64,000 nucleotides of DNA, taken from NCBI GenBank assembly GCA_963804085.1, contig CAWDOQ010000002.1, forward strand, positions 224,001-288,000, read 5' to 3'. Source of the stretch: Chlamydiia bacterium (GTDB taxonomy: Bacteria; Chlamydiota; Chlamydiia; Chlamydiales; Rhabdochlamydiaceae). Both the position numbers and the translations under genes were made by a program. The notes under the pieces were generated by a model that worked only from the letters and a program-made list of their open reading frames with translations, did no database searches and was not told the DNA's origin. How positions within the stretch are numbered: the stretch's first letter is position 1; each line of letters begins with the position of its first letter. Of the stretch, positions 40,023-52,122 are shown piece after piece.

Positions 40023-40664
40023 ATGGGCATAAAGTTTACGATTATAGGAGTGAATGTCTTTTTAGAGAGACGTAAAACCAGAATGCTTGTCGGATGTTTA
40101 AAAAAGGTAAAGGGACAATTTATCTTTTCCTACGACGAACAGTATCTGCATTCTAGAAATGTGTTTCCTCTTGGCCCTGAATTTCCTTTAACAAAACGAG
40201 AGTTTCGAGCCTCTTCTCTTTTCCCATTTTTTGAAGATCGCATACCCTCAAAGCAAAATCCAGCCTATGTAGAATATTGCGCTGCGATGGGTATTAGTCC
40301 TACAGAAAAGGATCCTCTTATCCTTCTCTCAACAATTGGCAAACGTGGCCCCTCTTCTTTTATTTTCGAACCGGTTTATGAACGCTCCTTTACAGTAGAA
40401 GATGCAATAGCATTCCGTATTGCAGTGGGATTCACTACAAGAGAGTTCGCACACGTATTCGAAATTCCTCAAGCATCTGTCAATGCTCTTGAACGCAAGA
40501 GATGTTCCGGGAAAGATCTTCTGAAACGCCTTGAGATCATTATCCGTTTCCCGACTGTCGCTTTATACCTACTTATCATCAACGGTGGAATATTGCCTCA
40601 CGAAAAATGGCATCAAGCTGAAGCTGTGCTGAGAAAAATGGGAGGTGAAAAACTATCCATCTAG
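40023..40664 (+). CDS. HipA-N-terminal (HipS-like) domain fused to an XRE HTH
   Basis: VGCL...FIFSYD..YL, LFPFFEDRIP; C-terminal FR...GFTTREFA..FEIPQASVNALE. Confidence 0.8.
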   Translation: MGIKFTIIGVNVFLERRKTRMLVGCLKKVKGQFIFSYDEQYLHSRNVFPLGPEFPLTKREFRASSLFPFFEDRIPSKQNPAYVEYCAAMGISPTEKDPLILLSTIGKRGPSSFIFEPVYERSFTVEDAIAFRIAVGFTTREFAHVFEIPQASVNALERKRCSGKDLLKRLEIIIRFPTVALYLLIINGGILPHEKWHQAEAVLRKMGGEKLSI

Positions 40665-40994: not shown

Positions 40995-41570
40995 TTAATC
41001 CGGATTTTGAGGCCCGCCGCCTAAATCCATGCCTTCATAAGGATTGTTTCGACCATGATTATCGTCATCATTATCATGACCACGATCACGTTCTTCGCAA
41101 TAAGCATTATATTCTCTTGCCCATTCTTTCCAAGATTGAACAGCATTATAGCCTGCAAAAGCCGCAACGGGTGGACATTCAATCGCAAGCCCTGCTCCAA
41201 TCGAACTTTCAAGTGCATCCACGAATGCGTCTTTAGCTCGATCGAGATGTTCTTGAGCCTCTCGACTAAGATCCTCTTCTCTACATTGTATAAAGACGCC
41301 CTTATCGTCCAAAGATAGAGATGGAAGCATTATCATCGATCTGTCCTTGCATAGCAAAACGCCTTTGCGAGTAACTGCCATTCTTTCTGGAGCTAAATAG
41401 ACTTTATCGTCTATCCAAGCTTCAACAGAATCTGGTTGCTCTCGGAAAATTTGTAGCGTTTTGATTGCTCCTACGTATCTTTGCAAGGTCACTGATTCAC
41501 GTTGTGCTGCTTGCAAACTAGCATGCATTAAGAATAAACCTGCCGAAACAGTTGCTAAAAGAAAGTGCAT
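40995..41570 (-). CDS. Secreted hypothetical protein
   Basis: ggagg RBS before MHFLLATVSAGLFLMHASLQA signal peptide; acidic low-complexity tail. Confidence 0.65.
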   Translation of the reverse strand: MHFLLATVSAGLFLMHASLQAAQRESVTLQRYVGAIKTLQIFREQPDSVEAWIDDKVYLAPERMAVTRKGVLLCKDRSMIMLPSLSLDDKGVFIQCREEDLSREAQEHLDRAKDAFVDALESSIGAGLAIECPPVAAFAGYNAVQSWKEWAREYNAYCEERDRGHDNDDDNHGRNNPYEGMDLGGGPQNPD

Positions 41571-41634
41571 AACTCCTCCAAAAAATGCAATCGCTCGTAA
41601 GCTATTCTTTTGACTCATAAGTTTCAAGAAAAAA

Positions 41635-42240
41635 TTAAGAATTTAAAACATCCGATGCGAGTTGCGAAAGCCACCTATGGAAGAGCCCGTCTTCTAGCGT
41701 ACAGATGATTTTTGCGTGCTCTTCACCCTGAGAAAGTTTCGAAAGACCCTGACGCATCTCGTTTAGATGCTCCTTCTCTTCCAGGAGGATCGATTTGACT
41801 GCTACTTTGGAATTGCTCTTGCGCAGGATAGCATCGTAGATGGGGTAGAGCTCTTCGGCACGCAGCTCTATGGCATAGGTGACAAGAAGGTAAGCAGAAG
41901 CGCGCATCTCCTCTTTTGCGTGCGTCTGCAGCAGGTAGCGGGATGTTTGCAGATCAAGTTTAGAGAGGTAGTGCAAAGAGGCAGTGCCACCCAGAAGGTT
42001 TGGCAAGGAGTAGTCGGCAAACGTAAGGGGCGTCACTCGGATAATTTGGCGCTTCAGGTAGTGTGCGTGGCGAAACTCCTCCGCAGCGTGTTTGAGCATC
42101 TCCTCTTTGACAAGGGTGGGGTGCTCGCAGCGTGCGATTTTGCGTGCACCGCAGTTCTCCAAGTAGGAGAGGGTGTTGAGCCACTTGGCATGGAGCGTGG
42201 GTGTCTCTACAATTTTTGTGAGTAATGCTTCTAGTTGCAT
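41635..42240 (-). CDS. bioE: Ferritin-like diiron protein in the biotin operon (BioE-type pimeloyl-generating oxygenase candidate)
   Basis: E...EEFRH...E...EEKEH diiron-carboxylate ligand pattern; overlaps the bioA stop. Confidence 0.75.
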   Translation of the reverse strand: MQLEALLTKIVETPTLHAKWLNTLSYLENCGARKIARCEHPTLVKEEMLKHAAEEFRHAHYLKRQIIRVTPLTFADYSLPNLLGGTASLHYLSKLDLQTSRYLLQTHAKEEMRASAYLLVTYAIELRAEELYPIYDAILRKSNSKVAVKSILLEEKEHLNEMRQGLSKLSQGEEHAKIICTLEDGLFHRWLSQLASDVLNS

Positions 42241-43493
42241 AAGGTTTGTTCTATCCTTTCGTAGATAAATTCTAATTCTTGAGGCTTGATACAGTACGGG
42301 GGAAGTAGATAGAGAACATTGCCAAGAGGGCGGAGAAGAATCTTCTCCTTCAAAAAGAAGCTGTAGAGCTTCTCTCCTCTCTTGTCAAAATAGGAAGACT
42401 CTTCTGTTTTATACTCTAGGACAAGAAGCGTGCCGAGCGATTCACACCGCTTGAGTTTGGGATAACCGTCCCATCTCTGGCAGAATTCTTTGTGAGCCTG
42501 GGCGATTCTCTCTCTTTGTTTTGTGCAAGCATCCGTCAGCAAGAGATCTAAACTTCCAAGCGCGCTTGCGCATGCAAGAGGGTTTGCTGTGTAGGAGTGG
42601 CCATGCAAAAAAGCAGAGGAGAGATGATCGCTTAAGAACGCACTGTAGATCTTCTCACTACATGCAGTTACTCCAAGAGGTAAAAAGCCCCCTGTCAGCC
42701 CTTTGGAAAGAGCGATCATGTCGGGGGTTTCTTTTAGCTTTTCGCATGCAAAGAGCGGGCCTGTGCGTCCAAAGCCTGTCATCACCTCGTCTGCGATAGT
42801 AAGCACACCCTTTACTCGGCAATGCTTTAGAAATAGATCTAATACTTCTGGTGGATAGATGCGCATGCCTCCAACACCCAACACGAGCGGTTCAAAAATA
42901 AAACAGGCGACATCCTGTTTCTCTAATAACTTTAGAAGCACTTCTTCTGCGTCAAATGAGGGGTCGACAGCTTCGACTTCAAACAGATGACTCCAGAAAG
43001 GTTTGTGTATCTGATTTTTGCCAGAAGCTGACATCGCTCCAAAAGTCTCTCCGTGATAGCTCCCCTTCAAACAGATTACTTTTCTTTTCGGGGTATTTTG
43101 GTTATGCCAATATTGAAAAGCCATTTTGAGAGCTGTCTCTACTGCGGTAGAACCATTATCAGAGTAAAAAATCTTGCTCATCTTTCCAGGAAGAATGGCG
43201 ACAAGCCGCTCAGCTAATTCTACCGCAGGAGAGTGGGTAAATCCTGCAAAGAGAACGTGTGGCAATATTGCGAGTTGCGTACAGATCTTTTCGGCAATGT
43301 ATGGATGAGCATGTCCATGCAGATTGACCCACCAAGAGGAGATCGCGTCTAAGTAGCGTTTGCCCTCTTCTGTGTATAAATAGACCCCCTCTGCTCTCAC
43401 AATCGGGATAGAGAGAGGCGCCGTTTGCATCTGCGTGAAAGGATGCCACACAAACGCACGATCTTTTTCAGCTAAAGATTGAGTGTTTGCCAT
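42231..43493 (-). CDS. bioA: Adenosylmethionine-8-amino-7-oxononanoate aminotransferase
   Basis: WHPFTQ, DAISSWWVNLHGH, DEVMTGFGRTG, SKGLTGG. Confidence 0.97.
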   Translation of the reverse strand: MANTQSLAEKDRAFVWHPFTQMQTAPLSIPIVRAEGVYLYTEEGKRYLDAISSWWVNLHGHAHPYIAEKICTQLAILPHVLFAGFTHSPAVELAERLVAILPGKMSKIFYSDNGSTAVETALKMAFQYWHNQNTPKRKVICLKGSYHGETFGAMSASGKNQIHKPFWSHLFEVEAVDPSFDAEEVLLKLLEKQDVACFIFEPLVLGVGGMRIYPPEVLDLFLKHCRVKGVLTIADEVMTGFGRTGPLFACEKLKETPDMIALSKGLTGGFLPLGVTACSEKIYSAFLSDHLSSAFLHGHSYTANPLACASALGSLDLLLTDACTKQRERIAQAHKEFCQRWDGYPKLKRCESLGTLLVLEYKTEESSYFDKRGEKLYSFFLKEKILLRPLGNVLYLLPPYCIKPQELEFIYERIEQTLCN

Positions 43494-44071
43494 AGTTTTG
43501 CATACTTTTTGATGGTGGAACGACTGACAAAAAATTCGGGAAGGAGCCTTGCGAGAAGCGGCACACCAGAGATTTGCAAGATGGCCGATTCGCTTGCAGT
43601 GTTAGGCTTTCCATTAAAGATGAGACCTAAAATGCTAACTCCAGCTTTTTTTAGCGCTTCGATTGTAAGCAGCGTGTGGTTGATGCTCCCTAGGTAGTGT
43701 TGGGAGACAACTACCCACTCGGCATCCCATTTTTTGAACAGATCGAGGCTCACCAGACTCTCTTGTAACGGCGTGAAAACACCTCCGACTGTTTCTATAA
43801 TTAAAGGACCAGTCACGTGCGGCATCTGAATGCGATCGATATCGATGTGAATATTTTCCATACGCGCAGCTTGATGGGGCGAAAGCGGAGCCTTTAGCGC
43901 ATAAGCCGGCCTATGGATGTTAGAAGTTAACCACTTTTGCACAGTGCGCGTGTCGCTTTTGCCGCACTCGATCGGCTTCCAGTAATCTGCTTGTAAAAGT
44001 TGTGCCAAAATAGCCGAGACCACAGTTTTTCCTACGCCTGTTCCTGCACCTGCTACGATGATTCTTTTCAT
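43472..44071 (-). CDS. bioD: Dethiobiotin synthetase
   Basis: GTGVGKT, YWKPIECG, SPHQAA, LGSINHTLL. Confidence 0.96.
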   Translation of the reverse strand: MKRIIVAGAGTGVGKTVVSAILAQLLQADYWKPIECGKSDTRTVQKWLTSNIHRPAYALKAPLSPHQAARMENIHIDIDRIQMPHVTGPLIIETVGGVFTPLQESLVSLDLFKKWDAEWVVVSQHYLGSINHTLLTIEALKKAGVSILGLIFNGKPNTASESAILQISGVPLLARLLPEFFVSRSTIKKYAKLWQTLNL

Positions 44072-45099
44072 AGATAGGAATAAAGCTCCTCAAGCTGCTT
44101 TTTTGTGTTAAAAGAGTGCAATGTGAGGCGCAGCCTTTCTTTTCCTCTTTGTACAGTAGGACTTAAGAGCGCTCTTACATCAAATCCTCTCTCTTGCAGC
44201 ATCTTTTCCTTTCTTCGGGCAGCGCAATTACCCGAGACAGGTAGAGATTGGATGTGTGAGGAGGCAAGACTCAAAAGGTGGGCACGCTCTTTTTCAAGCT
44301 TGGGGAATAGATCATAGCTAGATTTGATGGCAGCGAGAGCATAAAACGGGAGCGCTGTTGTGTAGATGCAAGAAGGCGCAAAATTGATGAGCGCCTCCTT
44401 GAGTGTTCTACTTCCCAACACGACGGCGCCATAGACTCCTAGGGCTTTTCCAAATGTGACGACCTGTGCGAAGACCTCCTTCTGAAGATTCGCTTGAGCC
44501 ACCAACCCGCGTCCTTCCGGTCCTAAGACTCCTACAGCATGCGCTTCATCTACAATCAGAGAAGAGCGATACTTTTTTGCTAAGCAGCAGATCTCGGCAA
44601 GAGGAGCAAAAGAGCCATCTGTCGAATAGATAGACTCGACACATATGAAGCTCTGTTTGTTTTTCTTTAGCCGCTCTTCTAAATGTGCCAGATCGTTATG
44701 TCTAAAGGGATAAGCGGGAGAGCGACTTAAACGGATACCACTGCGGATCGACGCGTGGACCTCGGCATCATAGATAAAGGACGCGTCACCAAGAGCTGCG
44801 AGCAGTCCGATATTGGCCATATAACCGCAACCAAAAATAAGGCCTGCTTCATAACCGTGAAAATCGGCAATCTTCTGCTCCAAAGCTTCAATGTAGAGAG
44901 AGTTTCCGGTAAGAAGACGCGATCCTGTCGAGCCCAATCTTTCCAGTTTCTTGCTCTCTTCCCGAACGGTATCGAAGAGAAGAGGAGAGCGCGAAAGACC
45001 CAAATAGTCATTAGAAGCAAAGTCGATGAGACCTTTTGTTGTGGAAAGCTTGCGCAAGTTGCCTTGCACTCTCCTTTTATCCAGTCTTTGAATGAGCAT
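44068..45099 (-). CDS. bioF: 8-amino-7-oxononanoate synthase
   Basis: DFASNDYLGL, GSTGSRLL, VDEAH, TFGKALG. Confidence 0.96.
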   Translation of the reverse strand: MLIQRLDKRRVQGNLRKLSTTKGLIDFASNDYLGLSRSPLLFDTVREESKKLERLGSTGSRLLTGNSLYIEALEQKIADFHGYEAGLIFGCGYMANIGLLAALGDASFIYDAEVHASIRSGIRLSRSPAYPFRHNDLAHLEERLKKNKQSFICVESIYSTDGSFAPLAEICCLAKKYRSSLIVDEAHAVGVLGPEGRGLVAQANLQKEVFAQVVTFGKALGVYGAVVLGSRTLKEALINFAPSCIYTTALPFYALAAIKSSYDLFPKLEKERAHLLSLASSHIQSLPVSGNCAARRKEKMLQERGFDVRALLSPTVQRGKERLRLTLHSFNTKKQLEELYSYL

Positions 45100-46033
45100 G
45101 TAACCCCAAAATCTCAAACATCTCTTTATCTCTGTCTGGGGCGCAATTGGCCACCGTGAGCAGCTTTTCTCCTGAGAAGATCGAATTTGCTCCGGCTAAA
45201 AAACAGAGAGCTTGCTCCTCATATGATAGACGGTCGCGGCCAGAAGAGAGGCGCACCATCGCATGGGGCAGCACAATTCTTGTCGTCGCTACCATACGGA
45301 CCATCTCCCAGATAGGAACCTTCGGCATATTTTCCAGAGGTGTGCCGGGAATGGGAGTCAAAAGGTTGATCGGCACCGAGTCAGGATGGGGATTGCGATT
45401 AGCCAATGTTTGCAAAAACTCGAGCCGATCCTGAATCTTTTCCCCCATACCCAAAATGGCGCCAGAGCAGACGCTTAAACCCGCTTTTTGGACGGTGTCG
45501 AGGGTCTTTAACCTGTCTTGATAGGTGCGCGTTGTGATGATCGTCTTGTAGAACTGCTCTGATGAGTCCAGATTGTGGTTGTAGGCGTACAAGCCGGCCG
45601 CCTTCAGACGCTCCGCCTCCTGCGGTTTTAACATACCGAGTGTGCAGCAGACCTCGACTCCCAGCTCCGCGATCCCCCTTACCATGCGCAGTACCTCTTC
45701 AAACTGCCCACTTGCACGCACCTCGCGCCAAGCAGCGCCCAAACAGATGCGGCTTGCTCCCTCGGCAATCGCCCTCTTTGCCTGCTCTAGCACCTCTTTG
45801 TACTGCATAAGAGGCTGTGCAGAAGTTGAGGTTTGATAGCGGGATGATTGAGCACAGTACTTACAATCCTCCGGACACCCTCCTGTCTTAATCGAGATCA
45901 GGCTGCATACTTGTACCTCCCCCACTTTGTGAAACTTCCTATGCACCTCTTGTGCATAGGCGATAAGCTCCAGTAAAGGGCGGGCATACAGCTCTTCCAA
46001 CTCTCCAAATTTCCAATCAAAGCTTATTGTCAT
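45077..46033 (-). CDS. bioB: Biotin synthase
   Basis: CPEDCKYC radical-SAM motif, YNHNLD, GANSIF.GEKLLT. Confidence 0.98.
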   Translation of the reverse strand: MTISFDWKFGELEELYARPLLELIAYAQEVHRKFHKVGEVQVCSLISIKTGGCPEDCKYCAQSSRYQTSTSAQPLMQYKEVLEQAKRAIAEGASRICLGAAWREVRASGQFEEVLRMVRGIAELGVEVCCTLGMLKPQEAERLKAAGLYAYNHNLDSSEQFYKTIITTRTYQDRLKTLDTVQKAGLSVCSGAILGMGEKIQDRLEFLQTLANRNPHPDSVPINLLTPIPGTPLENMPKVPIWEMVRMVATTRIVLPHAMVRLSSGRDRLSYEEQALCFLAGANSIFSGEKLLTVANCAPDRDKEMFEILGLHAHSKTG

Positions 46034-46085
46034 GCGAGCCAGTCTAATCCGTTTTTCATGCTTTTTCCATGCAAAATCATTTGGA

Positions 46086-46106
46086 ATAACCTACTTAATA
46101 GGTTAT
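46086..46106. promoter_or_regulatory. Perfect 8-5-8 inverted repeat in the bioB / regulator divergent intergenic region
   Basis: ataaccta-cttaa-taggttat. Confidence 0.6.
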
Positions 46107-46202
46107 ACAAAACAGATTTAGGTTTAAAAAATGGCGTCTTTTGGAGCAATATGGTAAAACTAGCAAATAGTTGGAAAGAGGCTCAAGGAGGGTTGATTTT
46201 GT

Positions 46203-46991
46203 ATGTTGCAAGTTCTTTGCGGAAATCAAAATGTGCAAAAGATCCTGCTCTTTTTATTCGTGAATGGGAGGTGCTATGGAACGCAGCTGCAGAGGCAGCT
46301 CGGCTCTTCGCTCACACCGATTCAAAAGGCGCTCCTCCGTCTAGAGAAGGGCGGGCTAATCCTGAGCTACTACGAAGGCAAGACCCGCCTCTACCAGTTC
46401 AACCCAGCCTATCCTCTACTTGTGGAACTCGAACATCTGCTCAAAAAAGCGTATACTCTGCTGCCCGCCCACGAAAAGAAGGGTTATTACGTCTCCAAGC
46501 AGGAGGCGGACCTCACCTCCCAGACTAACAAAATCCAGGTGCTGCTCGCTTTTTGGAGCAAACTCTCTTCTGTCACCCAGCTCACTTTTCTCGCCAAGAC
46601 CAAGTCGAAAGAGGAGGGGGGCTGGAATGGGAAAGGAAAGGGCGAGGTTACGATCAGCAAATCGGGCGATAACGTGCTTCTTTTCACGGAGAAGGGAATC
46701 TGGAAAGGAAAACAGGGAAAAGAGGTGAGCTTTAGCAACATCTTTCGCTGGACGCTCGATCGCACCAGCTGCATGATCTCTTTAGAGCACTTAAGACGCG
46801 GTCCAGATCATCCGGTTTTTCTCTTTCATCTTGCGCCTACCAGCCAACAGTCGCTCTCCTCAGTAGACTCCCACCTATGCGATGGGGACACCTACTTTGG
46901 AAAGATCCTCTTTGACAAAAGCTCGCTACGCTTAAACTGGCGCGTCATCGGTCCCAAGAAAAACGAAGAGATCGACTACTTTTATGCTTAA
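46203..46991 (+). CDS. Winged-HTH protein fused to a DUF6314-like beta-barrel domain; candidate regulator
   Basis: N-terminal YGTQLQRQLGSSLTPIQKALLRLEKGGLI...GKTRLYQFN (ArsR-like wHTH); C-terminal beta-rich region with HLCDGDTY and WRVIGPKKN. Confidence 0.75.
   Translation: MLQVLCGNQNVQKILLFLFVNGRCYGTQLQRQLGSSLTPIQKALLRLEKGGLILSYYEGKTRLYQFNPAYPLLVELEHLLKKAYTLLPAHEKKGYYVSKQEADLTSQTNKIQVLLAFWSKLSSVTQLTFLAKTKSKEEGGWNGKGKGEVTISKSGDNVLLFTEKGIWKGKQGKEVSFSNIFRWTLDRTSCMISLEHLRRGPDHPVFLFHLAPTSQQSLSSVDSHLCDGDTYFGKILFDKSSLRLNWRVIGPKKNEEIDYFYA
46852..46991 (+). repeat. 140-bp direct repeat, copy 1 (3' end of the wHTH fusion gene)
   Basis: Matches 51983-52122 with about 7 substitutions. Confidence 0.95.
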
Positions 46992-47135: not shown

Positions 47136-49055
47136 ATGTTGTTTTATACAGCCCTGTTTTTTTCATTCTGTTCGCTTTTTTCTTCGCTTAATGCCACGAC
47201 TTTTGTTGTCACTAATACCAACGACACCGGTCCGGGCTCCCTGCGCGATGCGCTCATGAATGTCTCTGCAAATGATCATGTCGAATTTACCTCCGCCCTA
47301 TCAGGAACAATCACACTCTCTTCTCCTCTGCCTTGGATTAGCAACGATCTTGTTATCCTGGGACCTACCAGCGGAAGCATCACCATTGATGGCCAAGACG
47401 CCTATCAGATCCTCTTTATCAAATCAGGCGTAGTAGAGATTTCCGATCTCACCTTCAGCCACGGCAAAAGCTTAGGAGGAAATGGGGGAAGCTCTTCTGC
47501 AGCAGGAGGCGGCGGAGGCCTGGGGGCCGGAGGTGCAATCTGCTGTAACAATAATTGCTCTCTTGCTCTCACTAGAGTTGCTTTTGCAAACAATTCTGCT
47601 ACAGGTGGGGATGGTGGAAGCGCATCCGCATCTCCGGTTCCCTCTGTAGGCGGCGGAGGAGGCGGAGGATTAAATGGTACTGGAGGCATTGGTGGACCTG
47701 CGCTGCTGGCAGGGGGCGGTGGAGGCGGCGGCGGGGGCTTTGCAAGTACGGGAGGAGCCGGCGATACGGGAGGCGGTGGAGGCGGAGGCATCACAGCTAC
47801 TATTGGGACAACACCATTTTCGGGAGATGCTTTTGATGCATCCGGAGCCTCCGGTGGAAATGGTGGCGTTGGCATAAATAATTTCCATGCTGCCGGAGGG
47901 GGAGCTTCTTCAGACGGCGCTTCTGCGGATCCTACTCTAGGTGGAGGTGGTGGTGGAGCAGGAGGTGGTGCAATGTCTTCTAACAATGGCGGGGTGGGAG
48001 GTAGCGCCGGTGCTATAGGTGGCGGCGGCGGTGGAGGTGGTGGAAATGTTGCAGGAAATGGCGGTACGGGCTCGGATTGGGGAGGCGGAGGTGGCGGTGG
48101 CGGCAGCATTCTTTCTACAAATGTAGGTTCAGGAGGCAGTGGAGGATTGGGAGGCGGGGGTGGCGGTGGCGGCTCCGGTTCTTTGAGTTCCAGTTTAGGA
48201 AATGGTGGCAGTGGAGGACATGGCGGAGGAGGGGGCGGAGCATCCCCGGGCGCAATAGGCGGAGTCGGCGGCACTCATGCAGGTGCGGGTGGAGATAATG
48301 GTGGAGGAGGCGGAGGTGGAGCGGGATTGGGAGGAGCTGTTTTTGTTGCAAGCGGAGCCTCGATCCTTGTGCAAGATGAACTTTCGCTCTTTTCTAGCAA
48401 TACCGTGACAGGAGGAAATGGAGGCAGTGGAGCAAATACCGGCACTCCAGGAGCAGGAGTAGGAGCAGATCTGTTCATTATGAGTAATGGCGAAGCGGTT
48501 TTCACAAACAGCAATGACATTCCTTTTTCTATTCGGGTAGGCGGGCAAGGGTTAATTTCTAAAGAGGGCGAAGGAGATCTTAACTTGATCGGCGACTCTT
48601 CTCCCGATAACGCGATTATGTTGTTTGCTCAAACAGGTAAGCTTGCGATCTCAGGAACATTTGGAGGCAACCTCCATATCAGAGAGGATGCGCGCACAGA
48701 AGGGGCATCTAGTATCGCAAGCCTAAACAATTCCGGAACGTTTTCTTTGGGAAACACCATACAAACATGCTCCATTATCAATGGCTTTTTGCAGCGTTCT
48801 ACAGGGGTAGTGGAAATTAAAATCGATCCATCCGGAAACTCTGATCTTTTGCAAATAGGCGATTCCGCCCTTCTAGATGGGACATTGCATATCATCGCAT
48901 CTCCCGGTTCGTATATCTCCGGTACCACTTATACGATTATCACTACTCAAGGAAGAGTATCTAGAACATTCAACACCATTCTTATATCCTCATCCCCTTC
49001 CCTGAACATCCAAGTCAATTATCTATTTAATGCTGTTCAACTCGTAATCGAATAA
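47136..49055 (+). CDS. Glycine-rich secreted autotransporter-passenger-like protein lacking a beta-barrel
   Basis: Signal peptide, VTNTND.GPGSLRDA start, long GGxGG tract, passenger C-terminal region, stop before any barrel. Confidence 0.8.
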   Translation: MLFYTALFFSFCSLFSSLNATTFVVTNTNDTGPGSLRDALMNVSANDHVEFTSALSGTITLSSPLPWISNDLVILGPTSGSITIDGQDAYQILFIKSGVVEISDLTFSHGKSLGGNGGSSSAAGGGGGLGAGGAICCNNNCSLALTRVAFANNSATGGDGGSASASPVPSVGGGGGGGLNGTGGIGGPALLAGGGGGGGGGFASTGGAGDTGGGGGGGITATIGTTPFSGDAFDASGASGGNGGVGINNFHAAGGGASSDGASADPTLGGGGGGAGGGAMSSNNGGVGGSAGAIGGGGGGGGGNVAGNGGTGSDWGGGGGGGGSILSTNVGSGGSGGLGGGGGGGGSGSLSSSLGNGGSGGHGGGGGGASPGAIGGVGGTHAGAGGDNGGGGGGGAGLGGAVFVASGASILVQDELSLFSSNTVTGGNGGSGANTGTPGAGVGADLFIMSNGEAVFTNSNDIPFSIRVGGQGLISKEGEGDLNLIGDSSPDNAIMLFAQTGKLAISGTFGGNLHIREDARTEGASSIASLNNSGTFSLGNTIQTCSIINGFLQRSTGVVEIKIDPSGNSDLLQIGDSALLDGTLHIIASPGSYISGTTYTIITTQGRVSRTFNTILISSSPSLNIQVNYLFNAVQLVIE

Positions 49056-49109: not shown

Positions 49110-51961
49110 ATGCGACGCATTGTTTGTTTTGCCGTTTTTTATGGGACAGTGTCCAACTCGATTCTCTTTTCTGCAACATGGAATTTAAACGCGAACGGCA
49201 ATTGGAATGTGAATGGCAATTGGACTTCGCCTTCTATCTTTCCCAATGGTGTAGATGCTGTTGCCATTTTCGGCAATGTGATCACAGCCAATCGAAACGT
49301 GACGCTAGGACAGGACATTACAATAGGGACAATAAATTTCGACGACAACAATCGCTATACCATCACCGCTGCGGCTATAGACGCGCTTACATTTGATGTC
49401 AGTTCGGGAAATGCAGCAATCAATATCACTAATGCAAACGGAAATGGACCTCATCGCATTCTCAACGATATGGTTTTTAATGACACTATTGTAATCGATC
49501 ACAACTCAACAGGAATATTTACCCTCTCAGGGATGATTTCGGGAAGCGGGGGGCTAACAAAAACCGGTTCTGGCACAACAGAACTGGATAACAGCACTAA
49601 TGATTATGCAGGAATTACCACAGTCAACGCAGGCGTTCTCGACTATATCACAGCCGGCTCCATTCTAGGCGGCAATACAGTAATCATCAACGGAGGCTCG
49701 CTTACTATCGACCAGACGATGGGAGGATCTGACGCATTAAATATCACAATCAATTCCTTGGGGACGCTTAACCAAGGAACCAATGATACAATTCGTTTGC
49801 TTACCCTGCAAGGAGCAGGAGATCTGGTCTTGACTACTTCTACTGGCGGAGGAAGTCTTTTAGAATTTGAAGGAACAGGAGCCGACACCACCTTTTCGGG
49901 TGCGATCTCGGGAGGCGCTACGAGTGGATCGAGTAATCCCAATGTAGGCAACCGTATAAGAAAACTAGGCTCTTCTGCTCTAACTCTTACAGGGTCTAGC
50001 AGTTATGTCTCTAGAACCTTTCTCAACGAAGGTGTGATCAATGTTCAAAATTCTAATGCTTTGGGCGCAGCAGGAGCAAATAGCGGCGTTTTTATAGAAG
50101 CAACGAGTGCCGCCCTTGAAGTGCAAAATAATATCACTTTGAGCAAAGCGTTAAATTTAAATGGATCGGGAATCGGCGGTAATGGAGCACTGCGAAGCAT
50201 AAGCGGAAACAACACTTTAAGTGATACAGTACAAATCGGCTGGTCCGGTGGACCTGTCTCACAAGCTGCCGCTACAATTGGCGTTGATGCTGATGTGTTA
50301 ACCATAAGTGGAACGCTGCAGGGATCTCAAAGTTTTATAAAAGTCGGAGCAGGAACATTACTGCTTTCCGGAACGGGCAACATCACTTCCAGCACTGCAA
50401 TAAACCAGGGAAAACTCCAGGTAACCGGATCTTACACAAGCACGGGCGGCCTTTCGGTAGCATCGGGAGCCATTTTAGCGGGAACCGGGACAGTGACTAG
50501 CAGCTCCTCCATCAGCGGGACCCTTGCACCCGGAAACAGCATTGGGACAATCATATTAGTAGGCACCGAAACCCTACAGTCTGGGTCGACACTTGAAATC
50601 GAAACTTCCCCCGCATTGGCAGATCGAGTAAATATCACCGGGACTCTAACCATTCAACCGGGCTCTACTCTTAAAGTCATCCCGGAAGCAGGAGTCTACT
50701 CCAAACAAACCTCCTATCTGATTGTTCATACAACTGGAGGCGTAACAGATACGTTTAGTGCGTTCAACATGACACTTCCTACGTTTTCTGCAACCGCTCA
50801 ATATACTGCTACCGACATTTTTTTAATTTTATCCACAGTTCCCTTTTCCAATCTGATAAAACACGGTAATGCAGGAGCTATAGCTAAATGCCTCTCTACC
50901 GCCACTCCCTCGGCAGGCAGCGATCTTTCCCTTATCATCGCACAATTGCAGTTTTTCACCCTCGATGAGATCCGCAATGCTTTGAATCAGATGCAAGCCT
51001 CAGCTCTTACCTCTCTTGCTCTTGCACAGGAATATTCGACTCTTTATATGAACGACGCTATTTTTGATCGTCTGGATCAACTGATCCGCCCTCGCGCATT
51101 CCGCCTACCAAGCAAGCGCCTCTCATTTTGGTGCGTGCCATTCGGCGCACTGAGTAGGCAGCAAGAAAAAAAGAAGAGCCGGGGTATCGCACGTGGACAG
51201 GCGGCTTCACAACCGGTCTTGACTACGCATGGGACAAAGGGATCGTAGCAGGAACAAGCGCAGGATATAGCTACATAGACCTATCTTGGAATGAGCGGCG
51301 CGGCCACTCTGTGATGCAAAACGGATATGGCGCGATTTATGGTAGTTTCCAAAACGATCTTTGTTATTTGTTTACGAGTGTAATTGGGGGTTATAACCAC
51401 TATGCCGTCTCGCGCCACATCATCTTTCCACAGGACTCTATCATCCCTGTCAACCGTAGAGCAAAAAGCAATCACAATGGACTCCAAGGATCAGGACACT
51501 TAAAAACCGGTCTTTTCTTCCAATATAACCATTTTAAACTCTGCCCTTTTGTTGCTGCCGATTATATCTACTTACACGAACAGAGCTTTAAAGAACATGG
51601 AGCCAAGAGCTTAGATCTGGATGTAAGCAAGAAAAACTCCAACTTTCTCGATTTAGAAGCCGGCTTTCAAATATCGGGGTATTTCTGCTCGAAAAAGAGT
51701 AAATTCTCTCCGACGATCGGAGTAAGCATTATTAGAGAGGAACGATTTCAAGGGCAACACTATCGCGCTAATTTGAAAGACTCCTCATGCACTTTTACTG
51801 TGACAGGGCTTAACCCCAACCGCACATTATGCGGCACAAAAGCAGGCTTTACTACGCTTTTGCCCAACGAAAATTGCACCCTTTCTTTCGATTATCTTGG
51901 AAGATATGGAACTAACTTCCAAGATAGCGTCGTTGAAGCGAGCTTTCTCTACCGGTTTTAA
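49110..51961 (+). CDS. Autotransporter with passenger-associated repeats (apparent frameshift at A7 run 51166-51172)
   Basis: GGLTKTGSGT..L..N.Y.G.T.VNAG repeats; barrel in the next frame ending in FLYRF. Confidence 0.88.
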
Positions 51962-51982
51962 ATGCGCAGATTAGAGAGAAAG

Positions 51983-52122
51983 CGCTCTCCTCAGTAGACT
52001 CCCACCTATGCGATGGGCACCCCTCCTTTGGAAAGATTCACTTTGACAAAAGCTCGCTACGCTTAAACTGGCGCGTCATCGGCCCCAAGAAAAACGAAGA
52101 GATCGACTACTTTTATGCTTAG
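51983..52122 (+). repeat. 140-bp direct repeat, copy 2
   Basis: Near-identical to 46852-46991. Confidence 0.95.

Follow-up and report, generated by a model that had tools for sequence, protein, structure and literature searches.

Class II BirA, as known from E. coli and B. subtilis, couples a winged helix to a ligase domain in which biotinyl-AMP is sensed, and it controls bio and bioY genes in response to biotin status, its operator being an inverted repeat within a divergent promoter region. In other bacteria it is replaced by stand-alone biotin regulators, namely BioR of the GntR family in alpha-proteobacteria and BioQ of the TetR family in actinobacteria, which act on palindromic operators at bio and bioY. 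More recently BioL, a MocR-type repressor of bioE operons that senses 7-keto-8-aminopelargonate (KAPA), was reported from Weeksellaceae (PMC12704756). Chlamydiae have been credited with a class I BirA and with neither BioQ nor BioR, and their biotin genes were suggested to be either unregulated or controlled in some novel way (Fisher et al., 2012; PMC3459881), and the lack of BioL in Chlamydia has been called a paradox (PMC12915131), so that by the statements of these two papers chlamydiae are without BioQ, BioR, class II BirA, and BioL. Here we describe a 262-amino acid protein encoded in a 64,000-nucleotide (nt) stretch of a Rhabdochlamydiaceae genome (assembly GCA_963804085.1, contig CAWDOQ010000002.1, positions 224,001 to 288,000), hereafter the window, whose own numbering is used for the coordinates below. 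This protein, encoded at 46203–46991 on the forward strand and divergent to a bioBFDA-bioE operon, is probably a one-component transcription factor for biotin supply in the non-Chlamydiaceae chlamydiae, acting through a palindromic operator with biotin or a derivative of it as co-repressor.

The predicted system resembles each of the described ones in part. With class II BirA it would share the winged helix, the inverted-repeat operator in a divergent region, the control of both bio and bioY, and the response to biotin status; the 262-amino acid protein has no ligase domain, however, and gave no BPL_LplA_LipB or birA_ligase match. Like BioL, it is encoded beside a biotin operon of the BioE type, but where BioL is MocR-type and KAPA-sensing, the sequence points to an ArsR-like helix joined to a DUF6314 domain, with no aminotransferase-like domain, and the protein occurs also at loci for uptake only. 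From BioR and BioQ it differs in DNA-binding family as well as in effector domain, and no GntR, aminotransferase-like, FCD, or TetR_N match was obtained at E up to 0.01. A preliminary description of this locus, drawn from the letters of the window, had held the architecture to be unlike that of BirA, BioR, and BioQ, which the missing ligase, GntR, and TetR matches bear out, and had proposed an undescribed biotin regulator. No prior description of such a regulator was found in the literature searched, nor was any mention of DUF6314; the main text of two surveys of chlamydial transcription factors (PMC4989314, PMC4652624) is without biotin, and their supplements may list the gene as unnamed or ArsR-like. 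As predicted from its sequence and its gene neighborhood, the protein is very probably a biotin regulator that had not been described before. The window genome (G000; 2.13 Mb in 24 contigs, phylum Chlamydiota, 91% complete, with ~5% contamination reported for the bin) encodes its BirA as a separate 248-amino acid protein of class I without a DNA-binding domain, and because the known regulators are lacking in chlamydiae as well, a separate regulator would be needed.

Linkage to Biotin Genes Across Chlamydiota

The candidate regulator has 1032 relatives in the database, the best 120 of which are 71–95% identical to it; the named organisms among these 120 are nearly all chlamydiae, with one labelled Verrucomicrobia, and for Criblamydia sequanensis CRIB-18 a protein of 74% identity is on record. 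A sample of 200 Chlamydiota genomes was scored, in 73 of which BioB was found. A regulator match of some kind is present in 118 of the 200 and a full-length one in 72 (71 intact, and one, in genome G041, disrupted), and none was found in the 28 scored genomes of family f4, probably equal to the genus Chlamydia, so that regulation in that group is not explained by the fusion protein.

The preliminary description had held that homologs without linkage to bio genes in other genomes would speak against its proposal, and what was found is linkage. The regulator gene stands divergent to bioB, at a distance of ~135–260 bp, in 33 of the 72 genomes. Another 24 genomes have it divergent to bioY, with no BioB in the genome and usually with a stand-alone BPL_N (PF09825) gene following; these were recognized among the first 20 (11) and the next 15 (13) loci examined. 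Four genomes have it beside short BioB/BioE remnants of a deleted operon, three on a contig that ends less than 0.8 kb upstream, and three in a fragmented assembly with BioB on another contig. Altogether an intact bioB or bioY adjoins the regulator in 57 of the 72 genomes, or 61 when bioB remnants are included, which lends support to the proposed role. Seen from the side of BioB, 52 BioB-positive genomes lie outside f4, with the regulator adjacent in 33 and no regulator in 15. One genome (G115) carries two regulator copies, one beside bioB and the other beside bioY-BPL_N. An overlapping set, the best 80 of 143 species-genome loci, gave 47 loci with bioB, 19 with bioY, three with BPL_N, one with bioD, and 10 with none of these; they are titled mostly as chlamydial metagenome-assembled genomes (MAGs), about a dozen as “uncultured bacterium” or “bacterium,” and four as Verrucomicrobia or Bacteroidetes.

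On a maximum-likelihood tree of 72 regulators, built by a quick method and with 11 rows that have no partner label, the bioB/bioY label needs seven changes, compared to a mean of 19.6 for shuffled labels, and branches whose support is 95% or higher impose at least three of the seven. Some regulators 64–70% identical to that of the window adjoin bioY, and some at 45–50% identity adjoin bioB. Judged from this tree and these neighborhoods, the regulator has changed partners several times between two gene sets that are not homologous and have nothing but biotin in common.

The stand-alone BPL_N protein (~260 amino acids, PF09825) trails bioY in most bioY-type loci, in the same operon and behind the same operator; examples are L006:6468-7274 on the reverse strand and its equivalents in L007, L009, L011–L013, L018, L023, and L057–L070, and no sequence relatives of it were found in PDB. 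The one copy in the window genome is unlinked (G000:C22:50413-51225). A second bioY of this assembly lies on contig G000:C17 (~757–1700), where the surrounding sequence has a strikingly high G+C content against 48% for the genome, and this contig may belong to the ~5% contamination of the bin.

A Palindrome Shared by bioB- and bioY-Type Loci

The regulator gene and bioB are separated by 169 bp (46034–46202), the very region in which the preliminary description had placed a candidate operator. It contains a palindrome, here O1 (46086–46106, inverted repeat I1), that reads ATAACCTActtaaTAGGTTAT and consists of perfect 8-nt arms around a 5-nt spacer (ATAACCTA-cttaa-TAGGTTAT), its center lying upstream of both genes, at distances of 62 nt from the bioB start and 107 nt from that of the regulator. 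A second and weaker candidate, O2 (TAAAACTAgcaaaTAGTTGGA, 46155–46175), has its center 38 nt ahead of the start codon of the regulator gene, and a degenerate half-site follows O1 at ~46107–46127, as seen by eye in the alignment. On the family matrix O1 scores 22–25 bits and O2 13–15 bits; no site anywhere in the 2.13-Mb genome scores higher than O1, which has 25.4 bits vs. 16.3 for the runner-up, and nine sites, O2 among them, exceed 14 bits.

The same palindrome is common to loci of both types, as follows from 62 intergenic regions between regulator and partner, 37 of the bioB type (including remnants) and 25 of the bioY type. Counting gapped palindromic 5-mers placed AACTA-N5-TAGTT on top with 19 regions, followed by AAACT-N7 (17), TAAAC-N9 (15), and ACCTA-N5 (9), where the maximum in 20 shuffles was five regions. 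The consensus AAMCTA-N5-TAGKTT usually occurs twice per intergenic region, and its exact core, A[AC]CTA-N5-TAG[GT]T, has 52 sites, which are spread over 41 of the 62 regions, compared to a mean of 0.16 and a maximum of two regions in 200 shuffles. With a matrix trained on bioB-type regions, 24 of the 25 bioY-type regions have a site that exceeds the 99th percentile of shuffles, and with one trained on bioY-type regions this holds for 30 of the 37 bioB-type regions. Most regions have two sites, 80–130 nt and 14–41 nt upstream of the regulator start, with the distal one 55–130 nt from the start of the partner gene, and several have an extra site 20–21 nt from the distal site. When five other genomes were scanned for exact AAMCTA-N5-TAGKTT, four gave one match each and the fifth none, the match being adjacent to the regulator in G099 only; these counts are no higher than those of a reversed-pattern control. 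Linkage to biotin genes across genomes and a shared operator motif, both seen here, are traits expected of a biotin-regulon transcription factor.

Domain Architecture and Predicted Fold

That the divergent gene encodes a 262-amino acid protein with an N-terminal winged helix-turn-helix (HTH) and a C-terminal DUF6314 domain was already part of the preliminary description, and both halves stand. DUF6314 (PF19834) is matched at residues 138–258 with 43.8 bits against a gathering threshold of 23.1. The N-terminal half is less evident from sequence, HTH_24 scoring 19.7 bits at residues 9–53, just under its cut-off of 21.9, and NF033788 (HTH_metalloreg) 18.4 bits vs. 55, so that membership in ArsR/SmtB is not established by sequence profiles; a PDB sequence search with the regulator profile gave weak winged-helix matches (E 0.004–0.03). 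The winged helix is confirmed by an AlphaFold2 model, built with the 72-sequence alignment, which has a mean predicted local distance difference test (pLDDT) value of 91 and a predicted template modeling score (pTM) of 0.80. In the model, a winged helix at about residues 1–66 (helices 9–21, 26–33, and 37–49, hairpin 53–66) is followed by a helical linker (73–121) and an all-beta domain (126–261), in keeping with the barrel-like domain of the preliminary description. The barrel has ten or so strands; DSSP assigns a helix at 107–121 and then eleven strand segments, two of which are short (217–220 and 224–226).

Residues 1–90 superpose on ArsR/SmtB and MarR repressors in VIA-align, with Z-scores of 10.8 for HlyU, 10.4 for SmtB of M. 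smegmatis, and 10.3 for BigR, and with 10.1–10.8 over 79–84 residues when AntR is counted along with HlyU, SmtB, and BigR, which identifies an ArsR-type winged-helix fold; for the set HlyU, BigR, SmtB, and SqrR the values are Z 10–11 at a root-mean-square deviation of 2.5–3.4 Å over 82–84 residues. Residues 108–262 match up-and-down ligand-binding barrels, namely a designed barrel (Z 13.4), the bilin lyase CpeS (11.1), Rv2717c (10.8), the spirocyclase OlmO (10.8), and the THAP4 nitrobindin (10.5). The ten-stranded up-and-down barrel and its preceding helix correspond to 4tq2, 2fr2, and 3ia8 at Z 10.5–11.1, and Foldseek concurs with the fatty-acid-binding protein (FABP)-like Ycf58, nitrobindin, and lipocalins. 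With Rv2717c, the C-terminal domain of THAP4, and CpeS/CpcS, the regulator thus has in common an N-terminal helix, an up-and-down barrel, and a central ligand cavity (Z 10.5–11.1 over 137–141 residues), but at 6–12% identity, and it belongs to Pfam DUF6314. The model therefore depicts the regulator as an ArsR-like winged helix fused to a nitrobindin/FABP-like barrel, and no description of a fusion of such a barrel to a DNA-binding domain was found in the literature searched. In the 72-sequence alignment the invariant residues E163, G165, E195, H196, L197, P204, and Y231 cluster in the barrel; near-invariant are N179, R182, R198, H224, D229, and R247.

ArsR/SmtB proteins are dimeric repressors of palindromic sites. 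They sense inside the winged-helix dimer, whereas the window protein, going by its model, would sense by the appended barrel. A homodimer prediction for the regulator gave a score of 0.31 vs. a mark of 0.42.

DUF6314 itself forms 827 representative clusters among 1.84 billion proteins (E up to 0.001), comprising stand-alone forms of ~150 amino acids and fusions of ~260, and in the Atlas the clusters closest to the regulator consist of stand-alone members of the family from Pseudomonadota and Fusobacteriota. HTH-only paralogs of the regulator are widespread in Chlamydiota. One in the window genome is of 111 amino acids (L002:1501-1836 on the forward strand, equal to G000:C12:28956-29291), is 47% identical to regulator residues 1–99, and overlaps the start of a 178-amino acid protein without a Pfam family (L002:1833-2369), the pair being placed between two genes of the enoyl-acyl carrier protein (ACP) reductase/short-chain dehydrogenase type. 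The notion that this 178-amino acid protein is a split-off DUF6314 was rejected, its hhalign probability being 0.4%.

The Biotin Operon and BioE

The operon is read from the reverse strand. Its first gene is bioB for biotin synthase (45077–46033; TIGR00433 at 377 bits, with Radical_SAM and BATS domains), followed by bioF for 8-amino-7-oxononanoate synthase (44068–45117), bioD for dethiobiotin synthase (43472–44071; TIGR00347 at 114 bits vs. a cut-off of 83), bioA for adenosylmethionine-8-amino-7-oxononanoate transaminase (42231–43493; TIGR00508 at 508 bits vs. 405), and a fifth gene for a 201-amino acid ferritin-like protein (41635–42240). For bioF the best NCBIfam match is TIGR00858 with 299 bits, under the cut-off of 426, and its identity is taken also from its position in the operon along with an Aminotran_1_2 match of E 3e-41. 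Successive frames overlap by 41, 4, 22, and 10 nt (23 nt in place of 41 if the first ATG of bioF is taken as its start), which fits the translational coupling of all five genes that the preliminary description had noticed. It had also found the operon to be without bioC, bioH, bioW, and bioI, as the list of open reading frames (ORFs) of the locus confirms; in the window genome, 91% complete as said, BioC, BioW, and BioH gave no family match above cut-off, BioI and BioZ not having been searched there.

The fifth gene had been described as that of a diiron oxygenase, and this holds, but the protein is not new. BioE was reported in December 2025 as a ferritin-like non-heme diiron oxygenase that converts C14–C18 acyl-coenzyme A (CoA)/ACP to pimeloyl-CoA/ACP (PMC12704756), and in the same month BioE of Chlamydia psittaci was reported to be active, monomeric, and specific for acyl-ACP, with E41, E68, H71, E140, E170, and H173 as its metal ligands (PMC12915131). 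The enzymes of Elizabethkingia and C. psittaci are described as cleaving long-chain acyl-ACP/CoA and complementing E. coli bioC/bioH mutants (PMC12704756, PMC12915131). The protein from the window gives a weak match to the ferritin-like COQ7 (E 0.005), and its function is taken from this literature; it is 51–52% identical to the fifth bio-operon gene product in five small f4 genomes, and through these five homologs its residues E28, E55-x-x-H58, E125, and E155-x-x-H158 align with the six C. psittaci ligands, the N-terminus of the f4 proteins being 13 residues longer with a further 2-residue insert, by which the published numbering is reproduced. With all six diiron ligands kept, the place after bioA, and the size alike, and no difference found, the fifth gene is by homology a further member of the published BioE family, with a predicted function in making the pimeloyl precursor, and BioE would stand in for BioC/BioH in this bioBFDA-bioE operon.

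Several features of the surroundings may be added. Seven nt past the bioE stop, on the same strand, starts a gene (40995–41627) for a 210-amino acid protein that is hydrophobic at its N-terminus and matches neither a Pfam nor an NCBIfam family, and beyond it, on the forward strand, a 213-amino acid ORF (40023–40664) has the HipA N-terminal couple_hipA domain alone, without a kinase domain. On the other side, the last ~140 bp of the regulator gene (46851–46990) recur near-exactly ~5.1 kb downstream at 51982–52121, with 80% protein identity over regulator residues 212–262. Between the two copies lie Pmp-like/autotransporter genes at 47136–49055, 49110–51248 (with a PATR repeat), and 51311–51961 (a partial autotransporter beta-domain), and the flanked block looks like an insertion or duplication that spared the regulator. 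Variant bio operons occur in other chlamydial MAGs, such as bioB-bioD-bioA without a BioF match (L111) and bioE straight after bioB (L091), and BioB matches within open frames of 677–719 amino acids in G064, G101, G167, G001, and G197 suggest, at the level of sequence, a BioB fused to another domain.

Proposed Mechanism and Alternatives

We infer a repressor rather than an activator, which would bind AAMCTA-N5-TAGKTT palindromes by its ArsR-like winged helix, probably as a dimer, at O1 and O2 here and, in other genomes, at the region shared with bioY or bioY-BPL_N, and would thereby control the divergent operon as well as its own gene. The C-terminal DUF6314 barrel would be the sensor, most likely of biotin as such or of a compound directly derived from it, e.g., biotinyl-AMP. 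In keeping with the usual feedback logic, the ligand would act as co-repressor, and ample biotin would turn off synthesis or uptake.

The choice of ligand follows from the loci for uptake only. In the 24 genomes with bioY beside the regulator and no BioB, biotin is the sole compound of the pathway that is expected, and linkage to bioY without any biotin synthesis speaks for biotin and against pimelate, acyl chains, and intermediates of the pathway, the first two of which the preliminary description had entertained alongside biotin. It is accordingly unlikely that the same factor, acting on the same operator, senses long-chain acyl-ACP, a pimeloyl thioester, KAPA, or dethiobiotin in order to tune the consumption of fatty acids by BioE, although the closest folds are FABP-like and nitrobindin-like barrels that take hydrophobic ligands, and although BioL senses KAPA and unbalanced BioE is described as costly in Elizabethkingia (PMC12915131). 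Synthesis intermediates are not expected in the uptake-only genomes, one operator serves both types of locus, and regulators as close as 64–70% in identity differ in their partner.

Several observations weigh against a biotin-responsive factor. In five of the 72 genomes neither bioB nor bioY adjoins the regulator (one of them has bioB 90 kb off), and in the four genomes with a deleted bio operon an intact regulator persists. In the window genome no site above 6 bits was found at bioY, BPL_N, or birA, and in G047, G087, and G119, where the regulator lies beside a deleted operon and bioY elsewhere, no site above 9 bits was found within ~1.5 kb on either side of bioY. The regulon therefore seems not to extend to unlinked biotin genes; a wider trans-acting regulon was rejected for these four genomes, which leaves the “orphan” regulators unexplained. 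Among stand-alone DUF6314 genes of chlamydiae, one of 17 lies within ~1 kb of a bioY, so that a biotin link for these genes was discarded and the domain as such is no biotin marker. Avidin and streptavidin are not among the top fold matches listed by VIA-align and Foldseek. A scan of 45900–46300 for promoter and terminator consensus found none; alignment of close relatives points to a possible TTGAAA-17-TAAAAT promoter between O1, the distal operator, and bioB, which would put O1 upstream of the –35 element, a place more usual for activators. Among the sequencing runs listed for the locus none is of RNA, and the DNA runs are five soil metagenomes from four studies, which contain small shares of it (0.05–0.16). 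Taken together, the site-free unlinked bioY, the persisting orphans, and the unlinked stand-alone DUF6314 genes confine our proposal to the fusion protein and would be compatible with a further function of it.

Part of this evidence would suit an autoregulated factor, or a DNA-binding protein with some other role, that travels with biotin cassettes, the palindromes serving its own promoter and bioB or bioY being constitutive. Such a protein would account for strong sites without an adjacent biotin gene (e.g., L087, L090, L103, and L130, at 19.9–22.7 bits), for a regulator gene that outlives the deletion of its bio operon, and for a regulon that does not reach unlinked bioY. We regard it as quite improbable, since repeated and independent re-association with two gene sets that are related in function but not homologous is hard to explain in this way, and since the distal site is closer to the partner gene. 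Moreover, bioB promoters have no sites where the regulator is absent: in the 15 genomes with bioB and no regulator (seven of f4 and eight others), no score above 5.1 bits is reached in the 460 nt before bioB, compared to 35 of 37 regulator-adjacent bioB regions above 11 bits, a control whose matrix was trained on the positive set, which counts against it, so that the cross-validation between bioB- and bioY-type regions is the cleaner test and mitigates this point. The disrupted regulator of G041 (G041:C1:544203-544990, locus L054), with two TGA and one TAG within the match, stands beside an intact bioB, and, as a single anecdotal case, its intergenic region is one of the few with no site above 11 bits.

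That the barrel binds heme, another tetrapyrrole, or a metal-related signal and couples expression of BioB (an Fe-S enzyme) and BioE (a diiron enzyme) to iron or heme status is very improbable, for while the top barrel matches include the nitrobindins of THAP4 and Arabidopsis and an S-type bilin lyase, and His196 and His224 are invariant or near-invariant, neither bioY nor BPL_N, to which the regulator is linked, is iron-dependent, the matched folds share only 6–13% sequence identity with it, and no recurrent heme or iron genes lie nearby.

A co-repressor-dependent biotin regulator, as preferred here, can be taken one step further. DUF6314 would then be an unrecognized biotin-binding barrel, and its union with an ArsR-like helix a fifth class of biotin regulator, of a structure unrelated to that of BirA, BioR, BioQ, and BioL, that reads free biotin without a ligase and switches both synthesis and uptake through an array of two or three sites spaced about two helical turns apart; this broader proposal we put forward tentatively, as one that may well be right but that we would not yet favor.

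Implications for Chlamydial Biotin Supply

What is already known at this locus is BioE; what is new is a predicted family of biotin regulators with a new sensor domain. In the pathogenic genus, the system was not found in any of the 28 f4 genomes scored, and the paradox of the missing BioL stands there. For the chlamydiae outside Chlamydiaceae, much the larger part of the phylum, the present analysis provides a candidate regulator together with its operator sequence, and it gives DUF6314 a first functional context. It also hints that a vitamin may be sensed by a calycin-type barrel distinct from avidin, and a biotin-responsive switch of this kind could be put to use in the genetics of chlamydiae and of other intracellular bacteria that are hard to manipulate.

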